A stretch of DNA of 32,000 bases from Cenarchaeum sp. (GCA_963692915.1 OY843584.1:631186-663185), one strand, 5' to 3'. Shown: positions 3,797 through 32,000, counted from the stretch's first letter. The notes: a model not told the origin generated them from the sequence alone. Program-made: numbers and translations.

Positions 3797-4000
3797 AAAA
3801 GGTGGGAGCGGGCAAGATGGCCTGCCGGGCGCAGATCAGTGGGGCTCACCAAAGGCCGGCAGGTCCGGCAGGCTGCCAAAACACACGCTTTGTGGCCTCC
3901 GGCACCCTGCGGGAAAGCCCCTTTTGCCCCATGGCGCACACTTGTGGACGGGGCATCCTTGTTCACAATACTTAACATCAACCCGGCCCAACTCTAGACC

Positions 4001-16000: not shown

Positions 16001-16207
16001 GGTAATCCTGTCACCGGCGTTAGCCCAGTGCGCAAGACCTCCAGTGCGATCCACAAAGCTGCTGCCAGTATTGTCGGCCACGGTGACCGTGAGGACGGTG
16101 ACCCCCGGAGGATCCGTGTCTGCCGTTTGGGCCGTCGCACCGCTGACAGAGGCGGCAAGAAAGAGCGACATGATCGCAAACGCCAGTGTTGGCACTGCAG
16201 CCCGCAT
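7034..16207 (-). CDS. Giant secreted surface protein (3057 aa) with many Ig-like (SbsA/Big_5-type) repeats and a distinct 342-aa C-terminal module
   Basis: Uninterrupted 9174-nt ORF. N-terminal signal peptide MRAAVPTLAFAIMSLFLAASVSGA. Recurrent ~100-aa Thr/Ala/Ser-rich modules carry the (V/I)TF(S/T/D)E(A/P/D)V strand motif typical of S-layer-type bacterial Ig-like domains. A Gly6 hinge leads into the CDDCTPPTLG...DADGDGTYDYD (DxDxDG-like) C-terminal module. No C-terminal TM segment. TATA box 25-31 nt upstream of the ATG. Confidence 0.85.
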   Translation of the reverse strand: MRAAVPTLAFAIMSLFLAASVSGATAQTADTDPPGVTVLTVTVADNTGSSFVDRTGGLAHWANAGDRITIDVTFDEDVATSPAPTIVVPGAHRTPTAVDMVNTADSNDRSWRHTFTIDAADTGGFTLTFTIVARDTATPPNVSPTSGANLINWQDTTSGSTANVLVRANVLSSAEFTGPRTILMKFVDTIATDTATTSNMAVTAPDNTLTPHDADTMPDVITVSSVSRSTARNVEATLSADAIPGVVYTIAPTFANGPGTPFDPATCGATCELTHTPPLVLSSAEFTGSKTIRMTFDDTIDMSTATTSNLGVTAPDNTLTPHDADTLPDVITVSSVARTTAMIVTATLGANAIPGVVYTIAPTFENSAGTPFDPATCAATCTLTHTPPFRVDKTGDTSYFAVLKSRADGSTIRASEFVIINLPDSTREIPVTAVGHPFSSAGRGVTSTIDNRLDFDIRVAFSGALGPDETPTIRYTSPATGGLAFGGTDLGAGVWDIVAVDKESITTFAPSVSSDGTSVRVTFSGPVTVLPESVIHVHTAAGTTGPVAGSVGGSNLMVSPTNPNEVVGTLPQRLKSGEYIPDAQNFADRATPPNQSAGKSGISVVNSPAPEISVALLTGDRTTVVRLDEAVSGTLRAADWSLAGMTSDGPVTVEIQSVRAGEHSTVDLLRSPTVELSSATAFTLRHESISNLDLTSMPGIMFAKPATLLAGQTALADSGGDPMDTDPFTLDELMLVDRTREIPPPKTVVDGTPMTLVSATLDSPTQVSATLSKSVDANIVLTGSEWTIGGGITFDSGHVAADRITLTRTQALDFTDLAAGTALLYTGSDTASNRVVDASGRNVLRTGSSVPLTDGIGPTASASFGAPGVINVAFSEALASPETIAGLTYTVTEDSTAVTLSGPHEYNPHTHTLELMLAGTATHRDVYAVALPSTGLADTSGNALTTTTVMATAPPFTAVTNSPTSTTVSFFGPPLTSGFLNLGHWIVTDDDDGDPQTSERRQISSLMLGTASVFVAQSQLLPTIKLSPSNTATEMTITHAPLSSTGSTPNVRHNLIPQIGLPPGVSGTPSAIQGLSVPYHDAEAVDNMPPTYTAKTVSRTGTDITFSEAVVLPVAGERAAGWQVGVHQASHAGSQPSGALTLYHADTASTGATPPVTYTVPTGSNAPPGIVDTVGNALSALVARMAADGAPPTPVASFGAADTITVNFGEAMANTGTIDTLTYAVTVPDGDDAGSDPDTVTPAAGSPAYNAGTNTLTITLASAATTGVEHTVSLPSTGLADAQGNAVTERSVSAAFGDAPPAAFTARTIDSRTIAVTFPLQPGGTLDADDWAVTEAGTDRRVTAVSAATGTLEGPAELLRRSIILTHDGLASTASTPKVTYTATDGDLTYGVTVLTTSQATAADTAPPEIRAAVITTPTSLHVTFTEPVTFVENIEGTSNPYVAGTEGTDNNWVVQEDDGSPSTSPVGIQVLSAMRETLSTYTLSLGSAIMADREYTVIPDYDIADMAEPANAVGAEESAMITTADSFTAETQTLTTTRVTFDGSLGGTLDTMNWTVTENDAASDAGNVALDISRVETVATSGKVTATPETSAGAGDAVTPAIPSSPAVTELLITHGPLSSTAATPSVMYVAGTLTDGVNAVLSYSTEAGDGAPPALAARDSLHMRKQASTPSNSPYLANPARLNDNVWVVITVTEPLYVGSTLIPVSATVSNTAALGTAMFFTDSGSPVTSTSVFRPDQANPLRYIYSHSVTSSSPEGDVTFSITVTDAEGSAATFTHADLTTRATNADGSSIAGAGYRVSIDRTPPTMLTDADTRTTSATSLTVKLSENLPRSATVGSADWGVAEGTTTVTVTSATLNSARDLVTIAYADADVDTSFAPTVTYMGSGLSDGAGNPLASGSTVMVPDRLVPSIVSVTFHSLRTVHVTFTEGVELPSTTAGWSIRPDLGVDSLTQPGSDNFVRMNLGSDATLGATYMIRLGQVTDKATAPNALAAGTQVTQEYLEIIPPAAYTATTHRAADSTYVRIVFTSTVTGNIHLDEWFVGTARDGTGGTQATAFSAVCTSGGAPAAVSATPFDITSICSGTDTEPLTFYIGYDAQASDATPHIAYRPASGQTMPVLLASDGTPIAGRTTAIDGLPPLFTAKTVSPRSIEVTFDEDVTAAAGGPDASRWYHYATATTPPALPTATELASAVTEGTDFGTAELVGRTLTLTLAESTVIASGWGTGDTTVTPPALGYDVPASMMSDILDTSAAANGLAANTATNDIADDAPLSAYPLTLTVADEASGSFTDRTGPNSQYANAGDRITLDVTFSEDIVTSPAPTITVPGTHRTSAPTAMGNAGDTDDRTWSHSFVVDAADDNAPFEFTIRATGANPATDVELTQSDITSGGNAVIDTVPPEFLQVFRPPGNTHQLTIYTEPVHGVASIVSSGSIGQVHTFTLTIAPEAATHTIRQVHSRVNFGPFTISISGLTDRAGNPLVPVPTMQAPLVEAGGTLSALELTVPATGEYTIEAVGEERGELGESTRIILSSLPSDTLAGTITVNVDGATVTLRQSTVVEDFGDVDTDESIAVARLPPPARGTEYVAAEGTDEETAANEAVTRVLSSRPPAILVEFGKSGDATPMTFDRPVAIRLLGAGAAAHAFWLSGADALTVHSIPECESFDDSGVPRGIGSGAIELRECRVRDGGDLVIWTNHFTRFGATQAGSGGGGGGDGCDDCTPPTLGVDSTGTRRVSQGFSYNGEAVDAEYYYTPMPLITVETGVENVAIIKVFEDTGPLNVRHVGLAFGLGRGQHFGESGAEIRVSLPYGNGNATASVGGAVDTIDAETLRASSEIGACMPGSEAECRIVTIHHTFREPLNFDVVSTVVWDERRNSWQNFFNHGVHVTGESLNPSHGIEVNGGALVLYPLIASNVDADGDGTYDYDTRHVTYMLDDEYRVYRITPAGTYEPLRNLASLYHEIDESMYEEDRATQHGWARGTDSFAELIASERAIAEEHLRAMGVAPAAPAAEPAYVASPEPEDQKEYLERLRAKIAHEINLAELALLEMYPAPPPE
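8064..8081. repeat. (CCG)6 trinucleotide repeat encoding the poly-Gly hinge of giant protein 1
   Basis: Six consecutive CCG units on the plus strand (GGC Gly codons on the coding strand). The paralog has four units at 17877-17888. Confidence 0.85.
15038..15697. repeat. Internal tandem duplication of a 330-bp (110-aa) domain unit in giant gene 1
   Basis: Residues 171-280 and 281-390 both run LSSAEFTG...NAIPGVVYTIAPTF...THTPP. Units are at 15368-15697 and 15038-15367. Giant protein 2 has a single unit, which accounts for the 100-aa length difference. Confidence 0.9.
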
Positions 16208-16846: not shown

Positions 16847-19800
16847 CTATTCCGGGGGCGGCGCAGGGTACATCTCTAGGAGCGCAAGCTCGGCGAGGTT
16901 TATCTCGTGGGCGATCTTTGCGCGGAGGCGCTCGAGGTACTCCTTTTGGTCCTCGGGCTCCGGGGAGGCGACATAGGCCGGTTCGGCAGCCGGCGCGGCC
17001 GGCACAACGCCCATGGCGCGCAGGTGCTCCTCGGCGATCGCGCGCTCGGACGCGATGAGCTCAGCAAAGCTGTCGGTGCCGCGCGCCCAGCCGTGCTGCG
17101 TCGCGCGATCCTCCTCGTACATCGACTCGTCGATCTCGTGGTGCAGCGAGGCGAGGTTGCGCAGCGGCTCGTACGTGCCGGCCGGGGTGATGCGGTAGAC
17201 GCGGTACTCGCCGTCGAGCATGTACGTCACGTGGCGCGTGTCATAGTCGTACGTCCCGTCGCCGTCGGCATCGACGTTGCCGGCTATGAGCGGGTAGAGC
17301 ACGAGCGCCCCGCCGTTGACCTCGATGCCGTGGCTCGGGTTTAGCGACTCGCCGGTCACGTGGACGCCGTGGTTGAAAAAGTTCTGCCACGAGTTGCGCC
17401 TCTCGTCCCAGACGACCGTCGAGACGACGTCAAAGTTGAGGGGCTCGCGGAACGTGTGGTGTATCGTGACTATGCGGCACTCGGCCTCCGAGCCTGGCAT
17501 GCACGCGCCGATCTCCGAGCTCGCGCGCAGCGTCTCGGCGTCTATCGTGTCGACTGCGCCGCCTACCGAGGCCGTCGCGTTGCCGTTGCCGTACGGCAGG
17601 CTCACCCTTATCTCGGCGCCCGACTCGCCAAAGTGCTGCCCGCGCCCCAGGCCAAAGGCCAGGCCGACGTGCCTGACGTTGAGCGGGCCCGTGTCCTCAA
17701 AGACCTTTATGATCGCGACGTTCTCGACTCCTGTCTCCACGGTTATGAGCGGCATGGGCGTGTAATAGTACTCGGCATCCACGGCCTCTCCGTTGTACGA
17801 GAACCCCTGGCTCACGCGCCTGGTCCCCGTGGAGTCGACTCCCAGCGTCGGCGGCGTGCAGTCATCGCAGCCGTCCCCGCCGCCGCCGCTGACGCCTGGT
17901 GCAGTGGCGCCAAAGCGCGTAAAGTGGTTTGTCCATATCACGAGATCCCCGCCATCGCGCACGCGGCACTCATTGAGCTCGATGGCGCCAGAGCCAATAT
18001 CTCCGGGCACTTCAGAGGCGTCACGCGATTCACACTCGGGTATGGCGTTAACGGTTAAGCCATTTGGGCCGGACAGCCAGAACGCGTGAACCGCAGCGCC
18101 GGCACCGAGCAGCCTTATTGCCACAGGCCTGTCAAATGTCATCGGAGCCGCATCGCCGCTCTTGCCTAACTCGACTAGCGTCGCCGGCGGCCTGGAGGCC
18201 AGAACCCTGGTCACTGCCTCGTTGGCCGCAGTCTCCTCCTCGTCTGCTCCTATCGCTGCGACGTACTCGGTGTCGCGCGCCGGGGGAGGGAGTCGCACGA
18301 CCACTACGGACTCGTCAGTGTCAACATCTCCAAAGTCTTCGACCACCGTCGACTGGCGTAATGTGACAGTCACCCCGTCCACGTTCACCGTTATCGTTCC
18401 AGCTAGTGTGTCACTGCGTTGCTCAGTCAGGCGGATGATCGTGCTCTCGCCCAACCCGCCTCTCTCGCCCTCCGGCGCCTCGATTGTGTACGAGCCTGCA
18501 GGTGGCACGGAGAACTCGGGCACAGCAAGAGTGCTTCCAGAGCCGGCTCTGACCGGAGTCGTTTGCTCACGGTTCACCGTGTAAACAAGCGGATTGTCGG
18601 CCCTGTCAGTCAGGCCGGTTAAAGTGAGTGAGTATGTGCCAGTGCCAGCTATGACCGCCTGGAATTGCTTGATCGTGTCCGTGGGAGCGTCGGCAGGTAC
18701 GGTGAACATGTTGTTATGGACCGGGCCAAAGGTGTGCGCCGTGTCTGGGCCCTGTGACACTGCCATGGCTGTGCCGTGCACAGGCTCGGTGAATATCAAT
18801 CGCTGATCAGAATCATGATCATTCATGGGTGGGCGAACCACGTAGAGGAGCTCTGGAGGCACGGTGTCTATGACGGCGTTGCCGCCGGACGTAATGTGCG
18901 ATTGGGTCAGTTCCACGTCAGTCGCGGGGTTTGCCCCCGTTGCGCGTATGGCAAACTCTAATGGAGCATTGTCGTCGGCGGCGTCCACCACGAACGAGTG
19001 TGACCACGTCCTGTCGTCGGTGTCGCCGTCGTTGCCCATCGCCGTCGGCGCGCTTGTCCTGTGCGTGCCCGGCACCGTTATCGTCGGTGCCGGCGACGTC
19101 ACGATGTCCTCGCTGAACGTGACGTCGAGTGTGATCCTGTCACCGGCGTTGGCGTGCTGGGAGTTTGCCCCCGTCCTGTCCGTGAACGAGCCGCTAGCCT
19201 CGTCTGCGACGGTCAGCGTGAGCGGGTACGCCGAGAGCGGCGCGTCATCCGCAATGTTGTTCGTTGCCGTGTTGGCCGCCAGGCCATTGGCTGCCGCAGA
19301 CGCGTCAAGTATGTCCGACATCATGGAGGCAGGGACGTCATAGCCCAGCGCGGGCGGCGTGATGGTCGTGTCGCCTGTGCCCCAGCCGCTTGTGATCACG
19401 GTCGACTCGGCCAGCGTGAGCGTGAGCGTGCGCCCTTCAAGCGTCGCGGTTCCAAAGCTTGTGCCCGCCGTGACGGCCGCGGCGAGCTCTGTTGCCGTGG
19501 GCAGTGCCGGCGGGGTCGTCGCCGTCGCATAGTGGTACCAGCGCGAGGCGTCCGGCCCGCCTGCGGCGGCAGTGACGTCCTCGTCAAACGTGACCTCTAT
19601 TGACCGAGGCGAGACCGTCTTGGCCGTAAAGAGCGGCGGCAGGCCGTCGATTGCCGTCGTGCGCCCCGCGATGGGCGTGCCGTCAGAGGCCAAGAGCACC
19701 GGCATTGTCTGGCCCGAGGCCGGCCTGTACGCGATGTGGGGGGTGGCATCAGAGGCCTGCGCGTCATAGCCGATGTAGAACGTGAGCGGCTCGGTGTCGG

Positions 19801-22800
19801 TGCCTTGGCATATGCTGGTAATGTCAAACGGCGTGGCTGACACCGCCGTCGGGGCGCCGCCGCTCGTGCACACAGCCGAGAACGCGGTGGCCTGCGTCCC
19901 GCCGGTTCCGTCACGCGCCGTGCCGACAAACCACTCGTTGAGGTGGATGTTGCCCGTGACCGTGCTGGTGAACACGATCCTGACATAGGTCGAGTCCGCC
20001 ACCCTGTGGGTCGTCGCCGTGTATGCGGCCGGCGGGATTATCTCCAGATACTCTTGCGTCACCACCATGCCGGCCGCAAGCGAATTGGGCACCGTGGCCT
20101 TGTCCGTGACTTGGCCGACGCGGATCATATAGGTGTCCCCGATTGTCGCATCACTGCCGAGGTTCATGCGCACAAAGCGATCCGAGCCGGGCTGCGTGAG
20201 GCTGCTCACGCCAAGGTCAGGCGTGATGCTCCACCCTGCAGTCGTGGATGGCAGCTCGACGTCTTCGGTGAACGTCACGTGCACGGTTCTGTGCGAGGGG
20301 AACGTGACAGTGTCTATGGAGGGCACGAGCTTGTCCGAAACGATCACCTCTGAGCCGCTGGCCAGGGGGTGGCCGGCCCCGTCACTCAGGCCAGTGCCCA
20401 TATACGTCACAGTCGGCGCAAAGCTAGTGTCAACGTCCGCATCCTCGTACTCTATGTTCACTCGGTCGCGCGCCGCGTTGAGGGTCGCGCTCGTGACTGT
20501 GACTGTGGTCGTGCCCTCGGCGACTGCCCAGTCTGTTGTAAGCACCGTTGCGCTTCTGGGCAGGTTCTCGGACAGCTTTACAGTCAGCATCGTGACCGAC
20601 GTCGTCCTCGTGTCACCGTCTGTGACCATTGTGGGAGGCGTGCGGTCTATGCTGACGCGGTATCCGGCACCTGCTATGGAGCTGCCGTCAGCATTAGTCG
20701 CGCCGGTTGTCAGGTTATCATGCGTGTATGTCGCCATGTTCCCCTCAGCGTCAGTCACGGTGAGCGTGAACGTGACGTCAACCTCTGGCGAGGTGCCCGT
20801 CACGGTGTGTGAATAGTTGTACTGGTAACGGGTCGGATCAGAGGAGGCACTGCGCTTCAGACCGCCAGCTGCCGAGGCCGTCGTCGACGAGCTCTCTCCC
20901 GGAAAGAGCGTGATGGTGGCGCGGGCAGGATCATAGCTTGCAGAATCTGTCAGGATAGCCGTGCTGCCGACGTATAGCGGTTCAGTGAATATTCCTATAA
21001 CCCACACATTTTCAGCTAGGAGGGCAGGTTTCGCAAAGCCCGTCGTGTTGGGCGCATTCTCTTGCGCCCTCATGTACAGCGAGTCTCCGGCTGCCAGTTC
21101 GGGCGGCGCGCCGTCACTGGCTTCAGTCGAGTACGACAGCACGGCATTTCCGCCATCCGTCAGGGTTCCGGCCACATACGTGACAGACGGCGTGGCCGCC
21201 GTCGAGGAGAGCGGCCCGTGCGTGATGAGCAGCTCCGTGACGGCAGGACTCGACGGTATGGCAGGCGTGACTGCGTCACCGGCCCCCGTCGTGGTCTCGG
21301 GCGTTGCAGTCACCGAGCCGGAGGTCGCCACAGTCGCCACGCGCGATATGCCCAGCGCCGCGTCCGGCGAGCCGGCAATGTCGTTCTCGGTGACCGTCCA
21401 GTTCCTCGTGTCAAGCGTGCCTCCAAGGCTGCCATCAAACGTGACCTTTGTTGTGGTCAGCGTCTGCGTCTCGGCCGTAAACGAGTTCGCAGGCGTGATC
21501 ATGGCCGACTCTACTGCGCCCACCGCGTTGGCAGGCTCGGCCATGTCCGCTATATCATAGTCTGGAATCACCACGTACTCCGTGCCAGCCACGATCGGCG
21601 AGCCGAGGCTGAGTGTGTACGTTAACGGTGTTGGGCGCGTGGCGGACAGCACTTGTATCTCCACAGGGGTGACGGAGATGCTGCCTTCTTGTTCCACAAC
21701 CCAGTCGTTGTCCGTGCCTTCGATGGCCGCGACGTACGGGTTGGACGTGCCCTCCATGTTCTCCACAAACGTGACGGGCTCGGTGAACGTGACGTGCAGC
21801 GAGGTCGGCGTGGTTATCACGGCTGCCCTTATCTCCGGGGGCGCCGTGTCGGCGGCGACTGCCAGACCTGTTGGCACAGGCGTACTGCCGTAGTACAGGT
21901 CACCACTCGCCGAGCTGTATGTCACTTTTGGCGTCGAGGCCGTCGAGGCCAGGCCAACGTGAGTCAGGACGTACGAGCGGGCGAGCACTTCCATATCTTC
22001 AAAGATACCAATTGCCGACGTGACTGCCATGACCATCCTGTCCGTGCCGTCCTCGCTCACTTTCCAGTCGTTGACATCGAGTGTGCCGGTCGGGCGCGAC
22101 GGAAATGTCACGGCGATGTGATCTGAGTCTAGCGTCCTTGCAGTAAAGACTGCCGGCGGGGCGTCCCCGTTTGCAGCTGACACCGAGCGCTCCGTGACTG
22201 CGTTGCCCTGCGCGTCGGCCAGTCCGGTCGACGGCAGGCTGACCGTGTGCTCTATTCCATTAACGGCGTTGGAGGCCAGCGTGATGGTAAGCGTGTTTGC
22301 GCTTGCGTCATACGCCGGCGATCCCGTTGCCTGCGGTACGGTGTCCGGAGCGTCACCATCATCGCTTCCATCAGGCATTGTGACTGTGTACGCCAGGCCG
22401 GCTATTGTCCCCGCGTTGGCCATCGACTCGCCAAAGTTGACTGTGATCATGTTATCCGCGCTAAACGAGGCAACGGGTGCTGGCGGCGTGCCGTCTGTGG
22501 CCTGAGGGGCGGGCAGCGCATTAAGCGTTTTGTCCGCAAGATCCACGATCCCCGGCGGGGCACTATCGCCAGTCGGCACCGTATAGGCAACTACCGGCAT
22601 GGCAGCAGTTGAGCCCGTGTCCGGGTGTGTCAGTGTGAGTGCGCCGTTGAGCTGGCTGCCAGCAGCCGAGGCGCCAAACCCGCCAACAGTCCATCCGGCA
22701 GCGCGCGAGCCGACGGCGGGCAGGACGACGGCCTCGCTGAACGAGACGTCCGTCTCGGTTCGGCTCACAGTCTTTGCCGTGTACGTCGGCCGCACTGCGT

Positions 22801-25720
22801 CGACGGACTCGGCGGTGAAATGTGGCACGTTGAGCCCAAGTGGGTTAACCACAGAGCCAATGCTAATGTTGTGCCTGACAGCCGGTGTGGATCCCGTCGA
22901 AGAGAGCGGCGCGTGCGTGATCGTCATCTCTGTTGCCGTGTTCACAACTAGTGTAGCGATCAAAGCCTGCCCATGGAGTCGGCTCGCAGATTTGGTGCCT
23001 AGCACAATTGTCGTTACCTGTCTATCCTCGGATGTCATCGAATCACCGTCGTCGTCGTCAGTCACCACCCACTGTCCCACGTTGAGAATATTAGACGGTG
23101 CGCCAAAGAACGACACAGTCGTGCTCGTCGGCGAGTTCGTCACTGCCGTGAATGGCGGCGCACGAGTCACAACACTCGTGGCCGTCAGGGCGTTGCCGGA
23201 CGTGTCGGCCAGTCCGGAGGACGGCAGTGTCACCGTGTACTCATCGTAGCGTAACGCCGGGTCAGTCAACATGAGCTCCAGCGTGCGTGTCGCCGGATTG
23301 TACTCGTGCGATCCTGACAGCGTCACGGTTTCTGTAGGCCCAAGCACGCCAAAGTCGTTTGTCGAAGGCTTTTTGCTCGCCGTGTAGGTGAGGCCCGCTA
23401 TCGTCTCCGGACTGGCAAGCTCCTCGCTAAAGGTCACTTTGATCACGCTCGACGTCCCAAATGACGCGCTCGCCGTGGGCCCGATGCCGTCGGTGAGGGG
23501 CACAGACGATCCGGTGCGCAGGACGACGTGTCCCGACGCGTCAACGACCCTGTTGCTGGCCATATCGGATCCCGTGTACAGCAGTGCCGTGCCGGCGCCC
23601 AAGTGGGTAAAGTCCAGCGCCTGCGTGCGCGTGAGCGTGATCGTGTTGGTGATGACAACGCCCGAGTCAAACGTTATGCCGCCGCCAATGGTCCACTCTG
23701 AGCCCGTGAGGACAATATTGGTGTCGACAGACCTTGAGAGCGTCGCGCTCACCTGCGTTGGCGAGTCGAGTGTCGCCGAGACCAGCGTCATCGGGGTGCC
23801 GTCGACGACCGTTTTTGGCGGCGGTATCATGTCGATGCGATTAACCGGCATCAGTTCATCCAGCGTGAACGGGTCGCTGTCCATCGTGTCGCCGCCCGAG
23901 TCGGCCAGGGCCGTCTGTCCTGCCGGAAGCGTCGCGGGCTCCCTGAACAGGATGCCCGGCAGTGATGTCAACTTCGCGTCCAACATTGACATGTGCCTTA
24001 GCGTAAACGCAGTCGCCGAGTCGAGCTCGACTGTTGGCGAGCGCAGCAGGTCGACTGTGCTGTGCTCGCCGGCCCTGACTGACTGGATCTCCAGTGTAAC
24101 CGGACCGTCAGACGTCATGCCCGCGAGGCTCCAGTCAGCGGCGCGCAGCGTCCCGCTCACGGCCTCGTCAAGCCTGACTACTGTCGTGCGGTCGCCCGTC
24201 GAGAGCGCCACAGAGATCTCGGGGGCAGGCGAGTCAACGAGCGAGACCCCGCCACTCCCGCTGCTGCGGTTTGGCGGCGTGGCTCCATCCCCAAACTGAG
24301 TCGCCTCGGGATAGTATTCGGCGCTCTTGAGGCGCTGTGGCAGTGTCCCAACCACCTCGTTGGGGTTGGTCGGCGAGACCATGAGATTGGAGCCCCCAAC
24401 AGAGCCTGCAACAGATCCTAATGAGAGGCGTTCGGTGTACACTTTGATAACGGAATCTGGAAGTATAGTGACGGGGGCATTGAATCTGGCGCTCACGGTC
24501 GTGCCATCACGGCTAACAGATGCGCTAATAGTGCCAATGCCAACCTTGTCGAGTGCGACGATCTCCCACACCCCGGCGCCCAGGTCCGTGCCGCCAAACA
24601 CTAGACCCCCGGTGGCCGGTGAGGTGTACCTGATCGTCGGCGTCTCATCAGGACCCAAGACGTCACTAGAGGCAATTCTAAGGTCAAAGTCTAGCCTCCC
24701 AGTTAGCGTTTCCGTGGGGCCTCTAGGAGGTGTAAAGGGATTTCCAAGTTCCGTAACGGGTATCTCCCTTGTAGAATCAGGGAGGTTGATGATGGTGAAC
24801 TCGGATGCGCGAACCGTGCTGCCGGTTGCAGCGGACCTGAGAACTACTTTGTAGAAACCTTCGCCGGTCTTTTCCACACGGTCGAACGGCGGCGTGTGCG
24901 TCAGTGTGCACACGGCGCCGCACGGTGAGGGGCCAATTGGGAGATCGGCGTTGCCGGTGAATGTCTGCGCGATGGTGTACACGACACCGGGGATCGCATT
25001 GGCGCTTAGCGTGGCTATGACGGCCCTGGCGCCTTGACGCATAACACTCGACACCTCGATCACGTCGGGCATGGTGTCCGCGTCATGTGGGGTTACCGTG
25101 TCATCAGGCGCCGTGACCGCAAGGTTGGACGACACGACAGTATCACTGGCGACACTGCCTGAGAACCCCATGCGAATCGTCTTTGAGCCCGTAAACTCTG
25201 CAGAGGACAGATTAGGCGCGTTCAAGACCACATTGGCAGCGTTGCCAGACGAGAGGCCTTGCCATGTTATCGCCCCTGCCCCCGATGAGGGGTTTGTGTT
25301 TGGGGTAGTTGCCGTGTCCGTGGCCACGATGTTAAAGGTGAAGGTGAACGGACCGCTGTCATTGGCGGCTATGACGTGCGTGTGCGACCAGGACCGGTCA
25401 TTGCCGTCGGCGGTGTTGACCATGGCCACGCCCGACGGTGACCTCTGCGCGCCAGGGGCCGTTATCGTCGGCGCCGGCGATGTCACGACGTCCTCGTCAA
25501 ACGTCACGTCCACGGTAATCCTGTCACCGATGCTCGCCCAGAACGCACGACTTCCCGTGCGATCCACAAAGGTGCCTTCAACATTGTCGGCCACGGTGAC
25601 TGTGAGGACAGTGACCCCCGGAGGCGTCGTGTCTGCCGCCTGGGCCGACGCGCCGCTGACAGAGGCGGCAAGGAAGAGCGACATGATCGCAAACGCCAAT
25701 GTTGGCACTGCAGCCCGCAT
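16847..25720 (-). CDS. Giant secreted surface protein (2957 aa), paralog of 7034-16207
   Basis: Uninterrupted 8874-nt ORF. The first 24 aa (signal peptide) are identical to the paralog, and the last 342 aa differ at 4 positions by eye. It has the same Ig-like repeat architecture, TATA box and poly-G tract upstream. Confidence 0.85.
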   Translation of the reverse strand: MRAAVPTLAFAIMSLFLAASVSGASAQAADTTPPGVTVLTVTVADNVEGTFVDRTGSRAFWASIGDRITVDVTFDEDVVTSPAPTITAPGAQRSPSGVAMVNTADGNDRSWSHTHVIAANDSGPFTFTFNIVATDTATTPNTNPSSGAGAITWQGLSSGNAANVVLNAPNLSSAEFTGSKTIRMGFSGSVASDTVVSSNLAVTAPDDTVTPHDADTMPDVIEVSSVMRQGARAVIATLSANAIPGVVYTIAQTFTGNADLPIGPSPCGAVCTLTHTPPFDRVEKTGEGFYKVVLRSAATGSTVRASEFTIINLPDSTREIPVTELGNPFTPPRGPTETLTGRLDFDLRIASSDVLGPDETPTIRYTSPATGGLVFGGTDLGAGVWEIVALDKVGIGTISASVSRDGTTVSARFNAPVTILPDSVIKVYTERLSLGSVAGSVGGSNLMVSPTNPNEVVGTLPQRLKSAEYYPEATQFGDGATPPNRSSGSGGVSLVDSPAPEISVALSTGDRTTVVRLDEAVSGTLRAADWSLAGMTSDGPVTLEIQSVRAGEHSTVDLLRSPTVELDSATAFTLRHMSMLDAKLTSLPGILFREPATLPAGQTALADSGGDTMDSDPFTLDELMPVNRIDMIPPPKTVVDGTPMTLVSATLDSPTQVSATLSRSVDTNIVLTGSEWTIGGGITFDSGVVITNTITLTRTQALDFTHLGAGTALLYTGSDMASNRVVDASGHVVLRTGSSVPLTDGIGPTASASFGTSSVIKVTFSEELASPETIAGLTYTASKKPSTNDFGVLGPTETVTLSGSHEYNPATRTLELMLTDPALRYDEYTVTLPSSGLADTSGNALTATSVVTRAPPFTAVTNSPTSTTVSFFGAPSNILNVGQWVVTDDDDGDSMTSEDRQVTTIVLGTKSASRLHGQALIATLVVNTATEMTITHAPLSSTGSTPAVRHNISIGSVVNPLGLNVPHFTAESVDAVRPTYTAKTVSRTETDVSFSEAVVLPAVGSRAAGWTVGGFGASAAGSQLNGALTLTHPDTGSTAAMPVVAYTVPTGDSAPPGIVDLADKTLNALPAPQATDGTPPAPVASFSADNMITVNFGESMANAGTIAGLAYTVTMPDGSDDGDAPDTVPQATGSPAYDASANTLTITLASNAVNGIEHTVSLPSTGLADAQGNAVTERSVSAANGDAPPAVFTARTLDSDHIAVTFPSRPTGTLDVNDWKVSEDGTDRMVMAVTSAIGIFEDMEVLARSYVLTHVGLASTASTPKVTYSSASGDLYYGSTPVPTGLAVAADTAPPEIRAAVITTPTSLHVTFTEPVTFVENMEGTSNPYVAAIEGTDNDWVVEQEGSISVTPVEIQVLSATRPTPLTYTLSLGSPIVAGTEYVVIPDYDIADMAEPANAVGAVESAMITPANSFTAETQTLTTTKVTFDGSLGGTLDTRNWTVTENDIAGSPDAALGISRVATVATSGSVTATPETTTGAGDAVTPAIPSSPAVTELLITHGPLSSTAATPSVTYVAGTLTDGGNAVLSYSTEASDGAPPELAAGDSLYMRAQENAPNTTGFAKPALLAENVWVIGIFTEPLYVGSTAILTDSASYDPARATITLFPGESSSTTASAAGGLKRSASSDPTRYQYNYSHTVTGTSPEVDVTFTLTVTDAEGNMATYTHDNLTTGATNADGSSIAGAGYRVSIDRTPPTMVTDGDTRTTSVTMLTVKLSENLPRSATVLTTDWAVAEGTTTVTVTSATLNAARDRVNIEYEDADVDTSFAPTVTYMGTGLSDGAGHPLASGSEVIVSDKLVPSIDTVTFPSHRTVHVTFTEDVELPSTTAGWSITPDLGVSSLTQPGSDRFVRMNLGSDATIGDTYMIRVGQVTDKATVPNSLAAGMVVTQEYLEIIPPAAYTATTHRVADSTYVRIVFTSTVTGNIHLNEWFVGTARDGTGGTQATAFSAVCTSGGAPTAVSATPFDITSICQGTDTEPLTFYIGYDAQASDATPHIAYRPASGQTMPVLLASDGTPIAGRTTAIDGLPPLFTAKTVSPRSIEVTFDEDVTAAAGGPDASRWYHYATATTPPALPTATELAAAVTAGTSFGTATLEGRTLTLTLAESTVITSGWGTGDTTITPPALGYDVPASMMSDILDASAAANGLAANTATNNIADDAPLSAYPLTLTVADEASGSFTDRTGANSQHANAGDRITLDVTFSEDIVTSPAPTITVPGTHRTSAPTAMGNDGDTDDRTWSHSFVVDAADDNAPLEFAIRATGANPATDVELTQSHITSGGNAVIDTVPPELLYVVRPPMNDHDSDQRLIFTEPVHGTAMAVSQGPDTAHTFGPVHNNMFTVPADAPTDTIKQFQAVIAGTGTYSLTLTGLTDRADNPLVYTVNREQTTPVRAGSGSTLAVPEFSVPPAGSYTIEAPEGERGGLGESTIIRLTEQRSDTLAGTITVNVDGVTVTLRQSTVVEDFGDVDTDESVVVVRLPPPARDTEYVAAIGADEEETAANEAVTRVLASRPPATLVELGKSGDAAPMTFDRPVAIRLLGAGAAVHAFWLSGPNGLTVNAIPECESRDASEVPGDIGSGAIELNECRVRDGGDLVIWTNHFTRFGATAPGVSGGGGDGCDDCTPPTLGVDSTGTRRVSQGFSYNGEAVDAEYYYTPMPLITVETGVENVAIIKVFEDTGPLNVRHVGLAFGLGRGQHFGESGAEIRVSLPYGNGNATASVGGAVDTIDAETLRASSEIGACMPGSEAECRIVTIHHTFREPLNFDVVSTVVWDERRNSWQNFFNHGVHVTGESLNPSHGIEVNGGALVLYPLIAGNVDADGDGTYDYDTRHVTYMLDGEYRVYRITPAGTYEPLRNLASLHHEIDESMYEEDRATQHGWARGTDSFAELIASERAIAEEHLRAMGVVPAAPAAEPAYVASPEPEDQKEYLERLRAKIAHEINLAELALLEMYPAPPPE
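17877..17888. repeat. (CCG)4 trinucleotide repeat encoding the poly-Gly hinge of giant protein 2
   Basis: Four CCG units at the position homologous to the six-unit tract at 8064-8081. Confidence 0.8.
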
Positions 25721-27349: not shown

Positions 27350-27360
27350 GGCGCCCGCTC

Positions 27361-27569
27361 GGCGTTTTGGCAAAAAAAATCACACACTAGGGGACTCTGC
27401 TCTTTTGCCATACTGGCGGCCCGGCGTGTTGGCAAAAAAAAAAATCACACTAGGGAACACTCTGCTCTTTTGCCATACTGCCGGCCAGGCGTTTTGAAAA
27501 AAATCACACTAGGGGGTACTCTATGTGTTCTTGCGCCATACTGTCCGCCAGGCGTTTTGAATAAAACGC
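27361..27569. repeat. Tandem array of ~63-bp repeats (3 full units plus a partial) in the convergent pgk/radical-SAM spacer
   Basis: Units are at 27361-27422, 27423-27487 and 27488-27550, with a partial unit from 27551. All begin GGCG(T/G)TTTG. Units 1-2 contain the inverted repeat TGGCAAAA(27368-27375)...TTTTGCCA(27403-27410) and A8-A11 runs. The partial unit forms the hairpin GCGTTTT-GAAT-AAAACGC (27552-27569). Confidence 0.85.
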
Positions 27570-27646
27570 GCACGGGCAGACTATGCAAAAAAAAACGCAA
27601 AGGCGGAAACACGGGGGAGATCATCTGGCGCGCGCAGAAAGGCGCA

Positions 27647-28789
27647 CTAGAGTCGGCGAACAGTCCCAAACATCGTGTCGCGCTGGATTGGCGTGCGCCC
27701 AATCTCGCGAACGAGCGCGCCGAGCTCGTCAACGGAAGAGCCAGTGGACTTGCCGGCGGCCCTGTATATCTCCTCAGAGAACGCGGTCCCGACGAGGTCG
27801 TTGCCGCCGTTGGAGAGGGCGACCTGCGCGAGCTTTTTTCCGTACGCGACCCAATAGACCGAGATGTTGTCTAGCGCGCCGGCGAGCATGAGGCGCGAGG
27901 CGGCCATGACGCGCAGGTCGTATATCGAGGAGCACTCGGCAGTCACGTCCCCGTCGCGGACCAGCTCCGTGTTCTCTAGGCTGAACTTTAGCGGGATGAA
28001 CGTGATAAACCCACCAGTCCTCTTTTGGAGCTCGCGCACGCGCAAGAGGTGGTCAACGACATGCTCGGGCCGCTCGACGTGCCCGTATAGCATCGTCACG
28101 TTGCTCCTTATGCCCTGCCTGTGCGCCTCCTCGACTGTGTCAAGCCACTCCTGGCCGCTGCACTTGCCGCGCACGACCCTCTTGCGCACGTCCGGATGGA
28201 GTATCTCGGCGCCCCCGCCGGGAAGCGTGTCAAGGCCGGCGTCCTTTAGCCTCGAGAGAATCTCGCGCACGCTGACTTTTGTGAGGGCCGAGAGGTAGAA
28301 TATCTCGGCTGCCGTGAACGCCTTTATATGCATGTCCGGCTGGCTCTTTTTTATCGAGCGCATCATCTCCTCATAGTACTCGAGGGGAAGCTTTGGGTGA
28401 AACCCGCCGACAATGTGGACCTCCGTTGCGCCCATGCCCCGCGCCGCCGAGACGCGCGCAGTTATCTGCTCGGCGCTAAGCGTGTACGCGTCATCATCGC
28501 CGGCCTTGCGATAGAAAGCGCACATTTGGCAGCTCGCAGCGCAGACGTTGGTATAGTTCATGTAGTAGGATGCGGCAAACGTCACGGCATCGCCCACGCT
28601 CCGGCGGCGAACCTCGTCGGCGACGGCGCCGACCATGTGCAGGTTTTCAAGCGAGAAGATCTCCATGCCGTCCTCGGCGTCAAGCTCCTCGCCCGCAAGG
28701 GCCCGCTCAAGCGCGCGTGACTTGCCCACTAGGCTCTCTAGCACAAGGGCGCGCAGCAGGCGGGCAAATATAACGCTTGAGCGCGCCAC
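27647..28789 (-). CDS. Radical SAM enzyme of the MqnC/MqnE/CofH family (futalosine-pathway or FO-synthase type)
   Basis: NYTNVCAASCQMCAFY contains the CxxxCxxC cluster motif in the NYTN(V/I)C context of this family. The C-terminal GGNDLVGTAFSEEIYRAAG...PIQRDTMFG matches the family C-terminal signature. A TATA box (TTATATTT on minus, plus-strand 28766-28773) lies inside the listed ORF, 22-29 nt upstream of an in-frame GTG at 28744, so 28744 is the likelier start (365 aa). Confidence 0.8.
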   Translation of the reverse strand: MARSSVIFARLLRALVLESLVGKSRALERALAGEELDAEDGMEIFSLENLHMVGAVADEVRRRSVGDAVTFAASYYMNYTNVCAASCQMCAFYRKAGDDDAYTLSAEQITARVSAARGMGATEVHIVGGFHPKLPLEYYEEMMRSIKKSQPDMHIKAFTAAEIFYLSALTKVSVREILSRLKDAGLDTLPGGGAEILHPDVRKRVVRGKCSGQEWLDTVEEAHRQGIRSNVTMLYGHVERPEHVVDHLLRVRELQKRTGGFITFIPLKFSLENTELVRDGDVTAECSSIYDLRVMAASRLMLAGALDNISVYWVAYGKKLAQVALSNGGNDLVGTAFSEEIYRAAGKSTGSSVDELGALVREIGRTPIQRDTMFGTVRRL

Positions 28790-28909
28790 AGTCCTGCGCC
28801 ACCTGCGCGCAAATGTCGGGGAATTCCTGGACCAGTGTGCGCCATGGCGCCGCCAGAGAGCTTAATCGCGCAGGAGACCGCATCAGGCCAGAGTCCACGG
28901 CCCATGGCA

Positions 28910-28928
28910 GGCTATATCATATATAGCC
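28910..28928. promoter_or_regulatory. Palindromic TATA element GGCTATAT-CAT-ATATAGCC upstream of cassette gene A1
   Basis: Perfect 8-bp arms with a 3-nt spacer, ending 21 nt upstream of the ATG at 28949. An identical element with identical spacing sits upstream of A2 (31402-31420). Confidence 0.55.
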
Positions 28929-28948
28929 GCGCAGCGCAGAATTCGCGC

Positions 28949-29557
28949 ATGACGTCTGCCTATTGGAGAGCGCACGGGGACCCACCAATAGTCGTTGGGA
29001 CTGCGGCGACGACGATATACATGCTAGGCATCATACTGGTCATAGCAAGGGTCACCGGAATCGTCCACGACGTCGGATCGTTTGGCGCCGTCATTGGGAC
29101 CATGGCGTTGGGGTTTATGGTCTACATATTTGTAAAGACCACAACGCGCGACAGCAAGGCCGAGCGAGGCAGAGAGTATGAATTGAGGGAGGCTGACAGT
29201 GAAAATATCAGTCGATTGACACGCATAATCGAGCAGTGTGAGATATCGCTGCTAAAATTAGAGCAGCATAAAGAAACATCCAAGGAAAGATTAATCATGG
29301 AGTTACAATATGTGCGAGATCGGACAGACATTATTTTAACAAATTATGAGAAGTATTTGAGTCCAGAAGGCAGAAAACTAGTTGGAATCATTAAGGACAT
29401 AATCGACGAGATGAGGTTTAATGGCCATGCAGGAAATACACGCACGGATGACGCGATTAAAAACATAGTACAATTAAAACAACACGTAATGGATGTGGAT
29501 GATCAAGAGCTCAAAAGAAACAGAGAGTCGACCATGCATGGAACGCCAGATCAGTAG
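28949..29557 (+). CDS. Uncharacterised membrane protein 'A1': two N-terminal TM helices plus a charged coiled-coil-like tail (203 aa)
   Basis: Hydrophobic segments PPIVVGTAATTIYMLGIILVIARVTGIV and FGAVIGTMALGFMVYIFV are followed by a Glu/Lys/Arg-rich helical-looking region. The ORF track starts at 28835. However, a 1-nt indel between the two copies (gcaggagaccgc versus gcaaggaccgc) puts the upstream parts in different frames. ATG 28949/31441 is the only start codon shared by both copies, and it sits 21 nt after the conserved TATA palindrome. Confidence 0.65.
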   Translation: MTSAYWRAHGDPPIVVGTAATTIYMLGIILVIARVTGIVHDVGSFGAVIGTMALGFMVYIFVKTTTRDSKAERGREYELREADSENISRLTRIIEQCEISLLKLEQHKETSKERLIMELQYVRDRTDIILTNYEKYLSPEGRKLVGIIKDIIDEMRFNGHAGNTRTDDAIKNIVQLKQHVMDVDDQELKRNRESTMHGTPDQ

Positions 29558-29582
29558 AGGCAGATTTGTGCCCAACTGGACA

Positions 29583-30143
29583 TTAGCGCATATAGCCCAA
29601 CTGGAGCATCTCGTCATAAACTTGCTCTATCTGTTTTTTTGTGTAGGTTGGTTTTATGAACGCAACATATTTGGGCAATTCTGCCCCAACAATCCTATCG
29701 CGAAATTCAACATGAATTAGCGTACTTGCAATTTCAAGCCAAGCGAGATCATGCGTATGCGCAAACTGTAAAAATTCGTCTTTGCGAACCCAGTGACCAA
29801 GGCGTTTAGAATCCGCCTCAGATATGTCAGGCAAGAGATAGTAATCACTGGCAAGTTGCGGGGAATACGGTCCATGTTCCAAAAGTCCATGGGAATAGCT
29901 AAATCCCAGTTGAAACACATTTTTGGCAAAATAGAGATACAGTTGGATTTTGACGCGTTCGTGTTCTGACGCATCTCTGGGGTTTTTGCCACAGTCGATC
30001 AATTTATGCTCAAGAAGGAGCTTGAGGAGCGGAGCCGTGTTTGGATCGGGAATTTGTGGATCACTCAAAATACCCGGCATGTCTTCCGTGGCACGCTCGG
30101 ATACTGTACCATATGCAGTGGAAGCCATGCTATGGCACCCCAC
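29583..30143 (-). CDS. Uncharacterised protein 'B1' with Panacea/SocA (DUF4065)-like motif; 5' end frameshifted relative to paralog B2 (possible pseudogene)
   Basis: 186-aa ORF paralogous to 30609-31193. ERVKIQLYLYFAKNVF...HGPYSPQLASDY resembles the K-L-Q-K-L-L-Y-(F/Y)-A ... GP-V/Y ... Y core of the Panacea/SocA antitoxin-like domain, recalled from memory and not HMM-tested. The ATG homologous to the B2 start is at 30171 and runs into a stop at 30130-30132. The body is only reachable from GTG 30143 or ATG 30128. Confidence 0.5.
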   Translation of the reverse strand: MGCHSMASTAYGTVSERATEDMPGILSDPQIPDPNTAPLLKLLLEHKLIDCGKNPRDASEHERVKIQLYLYFAKNVFQLGFSYSHGLLEHGPYSPQLASDYYLLPDISEADSKRLGHWVRKDEFLQFAHTHDLAWLEIASTLIHVEFRDRIVGAELPKYVAFIKPTYTKKQIEQVYDEMLQLGYMR

Positions 30144-30171
30144 AGACCCAGTCTGCTCCCCGCGTCACCAT

Positions 30172-30287
30172 GACTCGGCATAATGGCCCAAATGATTTAA
30201 CTGTTTTTGGAATTCCACGCGCGGGAATCGGGCATTCCTGCCCATTTTGGCCAAACGGGCGCGATCCCGCCGATCCGTTTACCGCAA
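30172..30287. repeat. Conserved B-gene upstream/control block 'U', copy 1
   Basis: Near-identical to 31194-31309 (offset 1022). Contains TATA-like TAAATCATTT (minus, ~30190-30200), GGAATTCC (30209-30216) and GGAAT-N5-ATTCC (30224-30238). Confidence 0.8.
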
Positions 30288-30608
30288 CGACGCCCGCCGG
30301 GGGCGCCGTGGCCAGGCTCCACTGCGCCCTGCCGCGAATGTTCGCGTTCTGCACGTCGGCGTCGAGCCCACGAACGGCACCGCCGAGGGGGCGCTGCGGC
30401 ACGGGGCCGTGCGCCGCAAGGCAGGCGGCCAGCGAAAGTGGAGCGCCGCCACGGCCGAGCGCATGCCTACCACCCCGGTATGCCTCTTCACGTGGGGATC
30501 CACGGGATAGAGCACGGCCGGGGAGGTCATGCTGGCGATCCGGGTGCTGACCTCATGATGCACGTAACTCCAAATCAGTAAAAAGGCAGATTCGTGCCCA
30601 ACTGCGCA

Positions 30609-31193
30609 TTAGCGCATATAGCCCAACTGGAGTAGCTCGTCATAAACTTGCTCTACCTGTTTTTTTGTGTAGGTTGGTTTTGTGGACGCAACGTATTTGG
30701 GCAATTCTGGTCCAACAATCCTATCGCGGAATTCAACATGAATTAGCGTACTTGCAATTTCAAGCCAAGTGAGATCATGCGTATGCGCAAACTGTAAAAA
30801 TTCGTCCATGCGAGACCAATAGGCAATATACTGGGAATCCGCCTCAGATATGTCAGGTAAAAGACGATAGTCACTGACAAGTCCCGGGGAATGTGCCCCA
30901 TGTCTAAAAAGCACATGATAATAGCTGAATGCCAGATCAAACACATTTTGGGCAAAAAAGACACACAGTTGGATTTTGATGCGGTCGTTTTCTGACGCAT
31001 CTCTGGGGTTTTTGTCACAGTCGATCAATTTGTGCTCAAAAAGGAGCTTGAGGAAAGAGGCTGTGTTGGGATCGGGAATTCGTGGATCATTCAAAATACT
31101 TGGCATGTCCACCGTGGCACGCTCAGACACTGCTCGATATGCCGGAGGAACAACGTAGTACCCACAGTCCCAGTATGCCCTCCACGCCATCAT
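30609..31193 (-). CDS. Uncharacterised protein 'B2' with Panacea/SocA (DUF4065)-like motif (194 aa)
   Basis: Intact paralog of B1 (DRIKIQLCVFFAQNVF...HGAHSPGLVSDY). The ATG at 31193 lies 19 nt downstream of a TATA-like TAAATTATTT (minus, ~31212-31222). Confidence 0.6.
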   Translation of the reverse strand: MMAWRAYWDCGYYVVPPAYRAVSERATVDMPSILNDPRIPDPNTASFLKLLFEHKLIDCDKNPRDASENDRIKIQLCVFFAQNVFDLAFSYYHVLFRHGAHSPGLVSDYRLLPDISEADSQYIAYWSRMDEFLQFAHTHDLTWLEIASTLIHVEFRDRIVGPELPKYVASTKPTYTKKQVEQVYDELLQLGYMR

Positions 31194-31309
31194 GTCCCAA
31201 CAGAATTACCCAAATAATTTAACCGTTTTTGGAATTCCACGCACGGGAATCTGGCATTCCTGCCCATTTTGGCCAAATGGGCGTGATCCTGCCGATCCGT
31301 TTACCGCAA
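31194..31309. repeat. Conserved B-gene upstream/control block 'U', copy 2 (here fused to the A2 promoter region)
   Basis: Contains GGAATTCC (31231-31238) and GGAAT-N5-ATTCC (31246-31260). It is followed by a third GGAATTCC (31315-31322) and GGAATTCG (31430-31437) flanking the TATA palindrome. Confidence 0.8.
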
Positions 31310-31401
31310 TGGGGGGAATTCCTGCCCATGTGCGCCATAGCGCCACCGGAGAGCTTAATCGTGCAAGGACCGCATCAGGCCAAAGTCCACGGCTCAGGGC
31401 A

Positions 31402-31420
31402 GGCTATATCATATATAGCC
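31402..31420. promoter_or_regulatory. Palindromic TATA element upstream of cassette gene A2
   Basis: Same 19-nt GGCTATAT-CAT-ATATAGCC as at 28910-28928, and the same 39-nt distance from its first base to the ATG. Confidence 0.55.
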
Positions 31421-31440
31421 GGGCAGCGTGGAATTCGTGC

Positions 31441-32000
31441 ATGACGTCTGCCTATTGGAAAGCGCACGGCGACCCGCCAATAGTCGTGGGGACTGCGGCG
31501 ACCACGATATACATGCTAGGCATCATACTGGCCATAGCAAGGGTCACCGGAATCGTCCACGACGTCGGATCGTTTGGCGCCGTCATTGGGACCATGGCGT
31601 TGGGGTTTATGGTCTACATATTTGTGAATAACACAACGCGCGACAACAAGGCCGAGCGGGGCAAAGAGTATGAATTGAGGGAGGCTGACAGTGAAAACAT
31701 CAGTCGATTAACACACATAATCGAGAAGTGTGCGATAACGCTGCGAAAATTAAATCAACATAAAGAAACATCCAAGGAAAGACCAGACATGGCAATACAA
31801 CGCCTGCTAGGACTGATAGACAATATTTCAACGAATTATGAGAAGTATTTGAGTCTAGACGGCCAGAAACTAGTCGGAATTATTAGGGACACAGTTGATG
31901 AGATGATGTTTAACGATCAAGAAGGAAAGATACACATGGATGACGCGATTAAAAATATCGTACAATTAAAACAACACGTAATGGATGTAGATGATCAAGA
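31441..32000 (+). CDS. Uncharacterised membrane protein 'A2', paralog of A1, 3' end cut by the window edge
   Basis: My own translation from ATG 31441 is open to the window end: MTSAYWKAHGDPPIVVGTAATTIYMLGIILAIARVTGIVHDVGSFGAVIGTMALGFMVYIFVNNTTRD...DAIKNIVQLKQHVMDVDDQ. The TM region is nearly identical to A1 and the coiled-coil part is more diverged. It is absent from the ORF track because it has no stop in the window. Confidence 0.65.
   Translation, partial: MTSAYWKAHGDPPIVVGTAATTIYMLGIILAIARVTGIVHDVGSFGAVIGTMALGFMVYIFVNNTTRDNKAERGKEYELREADSENISRLTHIIEKCAITLRKLNQHKETSKERPDMAIQRLLGLIDNISTNYEKYLSLDGQKLVGIIRDTVDEMMFNDQEGKIHMDDAIKNIVQLKQHVMDVDDQ

Follow-up and report, generated by a model that had tools for sequence, protein, structure and literature searches.

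A low-GC array in a Cenarchaeum-type thaumarchaeon as a candidate tandem series of toxin-antitoxin-like two-gene modules

How should one understand a run of repeated, low-GC DNA that begins directly next to a radical SAM gene in an otherwise high-GC archaeal genome segment? The segment is a 32,000-nt stretch of Cenarchaeum sp. (GCA_963692915.1 OY843584.1:631186-663185), called here the window, and over most of its length it is high-GC archaeal DNA with genes for EF-2, an XPD-like helicase, a HerA/TrwB-like ATPase and phosphoglycerate kinase and with two giant open reading frames (ORFs). The repeats at its end are built of two genes, A, whose product is predicted to have two transmembrane (TM) helices, and B, whose product belongs to a large family of small proteins. 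We propose that a tandem array begins here, made of a lineage-specific, toxin-antitoxin (TA)-like two-gene module of a sponge-symbiont, Cenarchaeum-type thaumarchaeon, with A as a putative membrane effector and B as its putative neutraliser, a module that would have been amplified and would now be shedding its toxins. To this reading, taken as a whole, we give an even chance.

The foreign character of the region is evident from its composition. GC content is 0.60-0.69 in the window up to ~29.0 kb and 0.38-0.45 at 29.1-30.0 kb; beyond 30 kb it alternates between 0.68-0.69 (30.15-30.6 kb), 0.43-0.47 (30.6-31.2 kb) and 0.42 (31.65-31.95 kb). GC content at third codon positions (GC3) is 0.44 in B1 and B2 and 0.44-0.45 in codons 66-202 of A, compared with 0.75-0.80 in the flanking host genes, while the TM-encoding codons 1-65 of A are intermediate (0.66-0.69). 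Repeat analysis finds the 5' part of A at 28876-29175 and again at 31368-31667 (94% identity), the 3' part of B at 29558-29857 and 30584-30883 (88%), and a block upstream of B, termed U, at 30139-30287 and 31161-31309 (86%). An earlier note on this DNA, made from the sequence alone, had described the fall in GC, the repeats, the gene layout, the 25 nt that separate the stops of A1 and B1 and the divergent region of 247 nt; all of these are confirmed, and the cassette that it pictured, two genes repeated and of foreign composition in a thaumarchaeon, is borne out by GC, GC3 and repeat analysis. A1, B1 and B2 are identical to called proteins of one public 1.64-Mb contig, and the translation of A2 is a prefix of a further protein of the same contig.

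Taken singly, B1 and B2 have nothing meaningful in Pfam, NCBIfam, PADLOC or PHROGs, and a word-indexed search with B gave only 8 relatives. A profile search over 1.84 billion representatives returned 1733 clusters, 386 of them at E up to 1e-10. The members of this family, which is without a Pfam model, are mostly stand-alone proteins of 145-200 aa (typically about 160 aa) and share the conserved core R-L-K-L-Q-K-Y-V-Y-L-A ... G-P-Y-S-P-x-L-A-x-D-Y-Y. The motif pair to which the earlier note had drawn attention (KIQLYLYFA and HGPYSPQLASDYY in B1) is indeed present, and it is the most conserved part of the whole family. Four relatives (P0007, P0021, P0211 and P0213) carry the JGI/IMG name 'uncharacterized protein YwgA'. 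B2 is 75% identical to B1, with the signature altered to HGAHSPG and with the ancestral start codon lost, an upstream ATG being used instead; its ortholog in the sister genome described below (copy at 12365-12931 of locus L001) is 90% identical and has the same signature and start changes. An AlphaFold2 (AF2) model of B1 (pLDDT 91) is all-alpha with one hairpin; it has a helix-helix-hairpin core at residues 31-88, and the first 23 residues are predicted to be disordered. Foldseek with this model gave no significant match in PDB or BFVD, and a profile of close B members found nothing among PDB sequences. No relatives were found on the viral contigs (IMG/VR) and plasmids (PLSDB) searched, and a viral or plasmid origin was rejected on this ground.

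The best characterised relative of the family is the C-terminal domain of DarG, which is reported to neutralise the toxin DarT by direct binding (Deep et al. 2023, via PMC11825919; PMC8832971). The NCBIfam model antitoxin_DarG (NF048014) is matched by 38 of 73 B-family members (best E 1.1e-6), always at positions ~169-296 of 338, that is, in the C-terminal domain. The PADLOC DarG model is matched down to E 1e-8, and the family profile reaches, marginally (E 0.011), the C-terminal domain of M. tuberculosis DarG in PDB (7yk3_B), the match lying on the same motif pair (LEIQKLMYFA ... GRYGPYSER). As judged from these profile matches, B, a protein that stands alone, is at the family level homologous to DarG in the toxin-binding domain; for B1 itself the link is transitive, through the family profile only. 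The DarG match and the PIN-paired relatives considered next together make plausible the antitoxin-like role that the earlier note had assigned to B.

Which partners do the relatives of B have? We considered 80 metagenome loci with B-like genes, which had been retrieved by patterns typical of one subgroup and include near-duplicates, so that the counts are not those of independent samples. A downstream neighbour of 130-260 aa is found in 58 of the 80, and 57 of these 58 neighbours form one family. All six members of that family that were scanned are PIN-like, five matching Pfam PIN models and three of them above the gathering score; the PIN partners are ~165 aa long and their sequences have an intact D-E-D-D-type core. 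In 49 of 57 cases the PIN gene is convergent with the B-like gene (the other 8 are co-directional), and the stop-to-stop distance of the convergent pairs is no more than 10 nt in 41 of 49, with a median of -4. Two further independent look-ups gave convergent PIN genes overlapping by 17 nt, which brings the total to 59 of 60 loci. Convergent order is a hallmark of the B family. The earlier note had called the gene order atypical for a TA operon; this is right in so far as the genes are convergent and form no operon, but the convergent, stop-overlapping order turns out to be the norm of the family.

Elsewhere the B-family gene has a PIN nuclease facing it, and in thaumarchaea it has A. The idea that A might be a diverged PIN was rejected, as a PIN profile built from the 57 neighbours did not match A; with the same profile no PIN was found in six-frame translations of the window or of the sister locus L001. 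As a separate observation, two hot-spring contigs with the B-like P0007 and a PIN partner (L002 and L003, 1-8000) also encode PCNA and a PD-(D/E)XK (Cas4-like) nuclease, together with unknown genes. Their context may be that of a mobile element or virus, though no B relatives were found in IMG/VR.

A itself matches the earlier description of a protein with two TM helices, a helical tail and no recognisable family. Hydropathy places the two N-terminal TM helices at residues ~12-30 and ~42-60; they are followed by a charged, helical C-terminal domain of ~140 aa, and the positive charges directly after the second helix suggest that this tail is cytoplasmic. Sequence scans found no relative of A in Pfam, NCBIfam, PADLOC, PHROG or PDB, and a profile of A gave only chance-level matches to PDB. 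A word-indexed search yielded only five homologs, all of them on three Cenarchaeum-type contigs. A2 is 80% identical to A1, and the start of A1 in the public gene call is ATG 28949, not GTG 28835. The gene is also compositionally chimeric: the TM part (28949-29143), with its intermediate GC3, is 94% identical between copies, and the remainder (29144-29557; GC3 0.44) is ~80% identical. This pattern could stem from gene conversion or from host-like and foreign parts having been fused.

If A and B belong together, they should be found together elsewhere, and the earlier note had set their failure to co-occur as grounds for giving up its claim; we found the pair both in a sister array and on an unrelated contig. 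A scan of one genome per species gave a single related locus, L001, in the metagenome-assembled genome Cenarchaeum sp. OY843768.1. It is syntenic with the window, as the same radical SAM gene adjoins it and the flanks are ~89-93% identical. Its array is longer and holds 6 intact B, 2 intact A and 4 further units in which a GC-rich segment fused to the last ~55 codons of A stands in place of A. A2 is most like the A of the fifth unit (81%), and a third B of the window genome (P0004) is 90% identical to the B that faces this same A; since both resemble one L001 pair, A-B pairs appear to be inherited together.

Apart from three Cenarchaeum-type contigs, the A-B pair occurs on L089, an unrelated thaumarchaeal contig with AmoB-like and PFOR genes. 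There the A homolog has 196 aa and is 29% identical over 186 aa (BLASTP E 5e-28; hidden Markov model (HMM) E 1.4e-33), the B homolog is 36% identical, and the two genes are convergent with a gap of 36 nt. This pair (3900-5250) is likewise an islet of 40-45% GC in DNA of 62-69% GC. Low GC that persists across 29-36% protein identity has either been kept for a reason or been re-acquired repeatedly from low-GC donors. Further loci with the relatives of B nearest to the Cenarchaeum clade show partners of a similar kind. On L090 the B-like gene overlaps by 4 nt a co-directional gene whose 175-aa product combines 2 TM helices with a helical tail; this product was rejected as an A homolog, similarity not being detectable; on L007 it stands with a gene for a TM protein cut by the contig end. 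The sister Cenarchaeum genome (~1.74 Mb) has at another chromosomal site a second, divergent B-like paralog (P0016, 211 aa; L088, 2175-5715), whose neighbours encode a cytosine DNA methylase, an unknown protein of 208 aa and a very acidic helical protein of 270 aa with a signal/TM anchor.

Selection appears to have kept both genes. Intact frames are found in 8 of 8 B and 4 of 4 A despite synonymous divergence (dS) of up to ~0.3. The ratio of nonsynonymous to synonymous divergence (dN/dS) between copies is 0.26-0.50 for A and 0.31-1.0 for B, and 0.26-0.38 for orthologous pairs; B2 and its ortholog have G-A-H for G-P-Y, yet their dN/dS is 0.31. Between copies the TM part of A is nearly invariant, and the tail of A and the whole of B vary. 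Loss is asymmetric, as A was lost more often than B: in the sister genome four A copies are truncated and two intact, next to six intact B, and for the window genome 3 B and 2 A products are on record. Loss of A with retention of B is the asymmetry that is expected if the lost gene is the toxic one.

The features of the array in the window are collected in Table 1.

Table 1. Features of the array and of its immediate border, in window coordinates
Feature	Position	Strand	Remarks
MqnE/CofH-type radical SAM gene	27647-28789	(-)	low-GC array starts directly beyond
A1 promoter-proximal region	28818-28948	(+)	repeated before A2 at 31313-31440
A1	28949-29557	(+)	202 aa; identical to called protein P0009
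Spacer between convergent A1/B1 stop codons	29558-29582	.	25 nt, from coordinates
B1	29583-30128	(-)	181 aa; identical to P0001
U1, block upstream of B1	30139-30287	.	box ATTCCTGCCCAT at 30234-30245; 86% identical to U2
GC-rich segment	30288-30557	.	270 nt, 73% GC; replaces A promoter and nearly all of one A copy
3'-terminal remnant of a deleted A copy	30558-30581	(+)	24 nt, MMHVTPNQ* vs A1 MHGTPDQ*
B2	30609-31193	(-)	194 aa; identical to P0209
U2, second U copy	31161-31309	.	overlaps 5' end of B2 call; box at 31256-31267
B2-A2 divergent region	31194-31440		247 nt
A2 promoter-proximal region	31310-31440	(+)	box 31318-31329; TATA-like inverted repeat 31402-31420
A2	31441-32000, cut by window end	(+)	full product 202 aa; translation = prefix of P0012

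In complete units the U block is the B-proximal half of a divergent B/A control region. The box ATTCCTGCCCAT is present in three exact copies, all in control regions of the array, two of which lie 62 nt apart in the complete divergent region; allowing up to 2 mismatches gives 6 matches, a number reached by 0 of 100 shuffles. A diverged copy, GGGGAATTCCTGG, lies upstream of A1 (28818-28840). The box may be an operator. Closer to A1 there is an 8-bp inverted repeat with a TATA-like core, GGCTATAT-CAT-ATATAGCC (28910-28928), ~21-39 nt before the ATG, and the usual archaeal TATA spacing suggests a promoter role for this region. A bacterial promoter/terminator scan, as expected uninformative for an archaeon, gave no terminator-like site in the A1/B1 spacer.

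The GC-rich segment had been taken for 280 bp of foreign DNA. A GC-rich insert is indeed there, if somewhat shorter, but it is not a random one, being a recurrent component of the units: five copies, 85-89% identical, occur in the two genomes, only inside arrays, and no copy was found elsewhere in the 52 kb searched. Aligned copies differ by indels of 1, 4, 9 and 11 nt, which, not being all multiples of 3, leave them without a common reading frame. The segment was rejected both as a gene and as a structured RNA, having no common frame, no Rfam match, an unremarkable folding energy (z-score -1.48) and only 1 compensatory pair. A 30-nt similarity between it and the radical SAM gene (E 0.011) was also set aside, as it looks like chance in GC-rich DNA. 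The adjoining remnant of A was recognised from the repeat register (29558/30584), the alignment and the ORF at 30207-30581.

Some features of the window stand apart from the array. The two giant ORFs are in tandem at 7034-16207 (-) and 16847-25720 (-), encode 3057 and 2957 aa and have no Pfam match at E up to 0.001; they are paralogous duplicates, since spurious-ORF patterns inside them recur at an offset of ~9.85 kb (for example, 9748-10137 and 19597-19986). Just upstream of them lies the gene of the HerA/TrwB/TraG-type ATPase (982 aa; 4001-6949 (+)), which has type IV coupling-protein-like domains and may belong to an apparatus for secretion or of a conjugation-like kind. Between the phosphoglycerate kinase and radical SAM genes (27357-27570) there are 3-4 tandem copies of a 62-65-nt unit that reads AAAAAAAATCACACTAGGG..CTCTGCTCTTTTGCCATACTG.CGGCC.GGCGTTTTG. 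No tRNA was found in the window.

How might such a module work? A would be the harmful, or effector, partner and would act at the membrane; B, in the cytosol, would bind the cytoplasmic tail of A and keep A inactive. In thaumarchaea A would have been swapped in for the PIN partner. Each gene would have its own promoter, and the mRNA of A, started from the TATA-like inverted repeat, would probably be leaderless. Transcribed toward each other, A and B probably overlap in their 3' transcript ends, since the first T-runs lie inside the opposite gene, and such an overlap would couple expression in antisense. The module may have come in, or been kept, as low-GC DNA, unequal recombination may have multiplied it, and individual A copies would later have been deleted and replaced by the GC-rich non-coding segment, with the orphan B copies staying intact.

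Several points weigh against this scheme. The count of 57 PIN neighbours in 58 overstates independence, as patterns of one subgroup and near-duplicates contribute to it. B1 alone matches no DarG, Panacea or other model; the DarG link covers mainly the motif-bearing half of the protein, with the 7yk3_B match (E 0.011) being marginal, and Foldseek with the B1 model returned neither 7yk3_B nor anything significant. A toxic role of A is argued only by analogy and from the asymmetry of loss. A classical type II operon does not have this convergent order, and the regulatory meaning that we attach to the order is an inference. Values of dN/dS near 1 in several B pairs could reflect relaxation rather than diversifying selection. 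Finally, with no relatives in IMG/VR or PLSDB, a mobile or defence context is not demonstrated.

Would the same locus make sense without any toxin? B might be a small regulator or adaptor, and A might do no harm, as a sensor in the membrane or a structural protein; the array would be a lineage-specific family that expanded for life inside a sponge. A regulator would be in keeping with the helix-helix-hairpin core of the B1 model, possibly winged-helix-like, and with the repeated boxes and the inverted repeat of the control regions, and a sensor with a TM part that is almost invariant while the tail varies; many expanded accessory families are also known from the literature on sponge thaumarchaea. 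Nevertheless we consider this explanation unlikely. Profile scans matched B to no DNA-binding family, the closest characterised relative is a toxin-binding antitoxin domain, the conserved partner that relatives have elsewhere is a classical toxin, the PIN nuclease, and the selective loss of A with B kept is hard to explain for a harmless A.

The earlier note had read B as a true Panacea/SocA antitoxin (DUF4065, PF13274), which would make A a PanT-type membrane toxin. Many toxins are reported as partners of Panacea antitoxins, among them membrane-depolarising proteins that combine TM helices with a coiled coil (PMC8832971). Membership of B in this family was not borne out by profile search or Foldseek, and we regard it as rather improbable. 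B1 and B2 had no match to PF13274 with E allowed up to 1, nor did 9 close B members with a limit of 10 or 73 members of the superfamily with one of 0.01. A UniRef name speaks for it, as the 90%-cluster mate (P0210) of the family member P0015 is called 'Antitoxin SocA-like Panacea domain-containing protein', but the current Pfam model does not match P0210 either, at E up to 10. The NCBIfam model SocA_antitoxin is matched weakly by 1 of 73 members (E 0.009).

Profiles were compared as well. Starting from the validated PanA of the Burkholderia prophage phi52237, we obtained 47 PF13274 proteins and aligned 29 of them, a narrow set of Burkholderia type only. Between the 73-sequence B profile and this set hhalign aligned 36 columns at the motif pair (E 0.014) with a probability of 3%, a value that with so narrow a Panacea profile is not final; with the single PanA of phage phi52237 the alignment covered 43 columns at a probability of 12%. 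The Panacea profile itself found nothing among PDB sequences. What the two families have in common is a motif pair, Q-K-x-x-Y-x-A then G-P-Y in B and Q-K-L-A-Y-F then G-P-V in Panacea: hhalign places G-P-Y-S-P of B against F-G-P-V-L-P of Panacea, with G and P kept and V changed to Y throughout the family (G-A-H in B2). GPV is described as the Panacea signature and reported to be critical for neutralisation (PMC8832971); the signature of the B family is GPY and not GPV. The likeness at the level of the motifs is real and a distant relationship is possible; the C-terminal domain of DarG is, on sequence, the better supported relative of B.

It is quite improbable, in our opinion, that the array is what remains of horizontally acquired DNA, now decaying and without a function at present. 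Such decay would fit the foreign composition, the truncated A copies with their GC-rich filler, the loss of the ancestral start codon and of the GPY signature in B2, and the dN/dS of ~0.8-1.0 in several B pairs. It would not fit the 8 B and 4 A frames that remain intact at the dS given above, the low dN/dS of orthologous pairs, the conservation of the pair at 29-36% identity in another lineage, or the presence of the array at the same site in genomes ~89% identical in DNA. Very improbable is a reversal of roles, with B proteins as effectors or activators (such as mimics of nucleic acid by which a host factor is titrated) and PIN and A as controllers or targets, for which one could cite the single-stranded DNA mimicry reported for the C-terminal domain of DarG (Deep et al. 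2023, via PMC11825919) and the excess of B over A copies, since PIN proteins are nucleases with an intact D-E-D-D-type core, B has no enzymatic motif and the survival of orphan B copies fits a harmless neutraliser better.

In the searchable literature (YwgA, DarG with Panacea, PIN with DarG) we found no description of either the convergent PIN/B-like pair or the A-B pair. From Panacea it is already known that a promiscuous antitoxin domain can go with swapped toxins, membrane toxins among them (PMC8832971). Tentatively, and with clear doubt, we suggest that DarG-C-terminal-like ('YwgA'-type) proteins and their convergent, stop-overlapping partners might form a widespread undescribed class of two-gene conflict modules, in which one neutraliser fold is recombined with unrelated effectors (PIN mostly, a 2-TM protein in thaumarchaea) and an obligatory antisense overlap of the 3' ends adds coupling at the RNA level to neutralisation at the protein level. 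If this class is real, the Cenarchaeum array documents in nature, for an uncultured symbiont of an animal, how effectors were swapped, modules amplified and toxins lost. If the TA-like reading of the locus is right, a family of ~1,700 protein clusters with a placeholder name and no Pfam model would gain a working role, and the toxin-binding domain of DarG would be seen to exist free-standing with interchangeable partners, as a second promiscuous neutraliser beside Panacea. The conserved geometry of convergent genes with overlapping stops, which is not expected for a protein-protein TA system, would suggest antisense coupling. The thaumarchaeal locus would then be an archaeal, symbiont-specific case with a new membrane partner, and the array would tell which of the two partners goes first.

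Among known systems, a type II TA module resembles A-B in being a pair of adjacent genes that co-occur across genomes; it is a co-transcribed operon with autoregulation, whereas A and B are convergent and have separate upstream regions. With DarG of DarTG (PDB 7YK3 chain B; NF048014) the B family shares the motif x-I/L-Q-K-x-x-Y-F/L-A ... Y-G-P-Y-S. Unlike B, which is without any Pfam/NCBIfam domain, DarG has an N-terminal macrodomain (ADP-ribosyl glycohydrolase), and it adjoins the ADP-ribosyltransferase DarT, while the neighbours of B are A and the array repeats, with no DarT-like match. DarTG is an operon; the A/B genes are convergent and B is a stand-alone protein of ~160-180 aa. The PADLOC phage-defence candidate PDC-M19A shares its N-terminal part with B-family members, which match the first ~120 positions of its 294-position model down to E 1.2e-8; it is longer, B1 and B2 themselves do not match it, and the window has no defence-island context.

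VapBC-type pairs come to mind because of the PIN partners: relatives of B adjoin PIN proteins of ~165 aa, as VapB antitoxins do. However, VapBC is a co-transcribed operon and the PIN/B-like pairs are convergent with a 4-nt stop overlap; moreover, B is unrelated to VapB-type DNA-binding antitoxins, and there is no PIN in the window. Panacea (PanA/SocA, DUF4065) differs from B in its signature, GPV as opposed to GPY, and in the lack of any HMM or significant profile-profile match, and PanAT are conserved two-gene loci, as described in PMC8832971, while the B-family pair is mostly convergent with overlapping stops. Like B, Panacea is small and mostly helical, with a Q-K-x-x-Y helix followed by a G-P-x motif. 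It is also one neutraliser family with unrelated partners, as the B family seems to be with PIN in most cases and a 2-TM protein here, and it offers a precedent for membrane-targeting partners with TM helices and a coiled coil.

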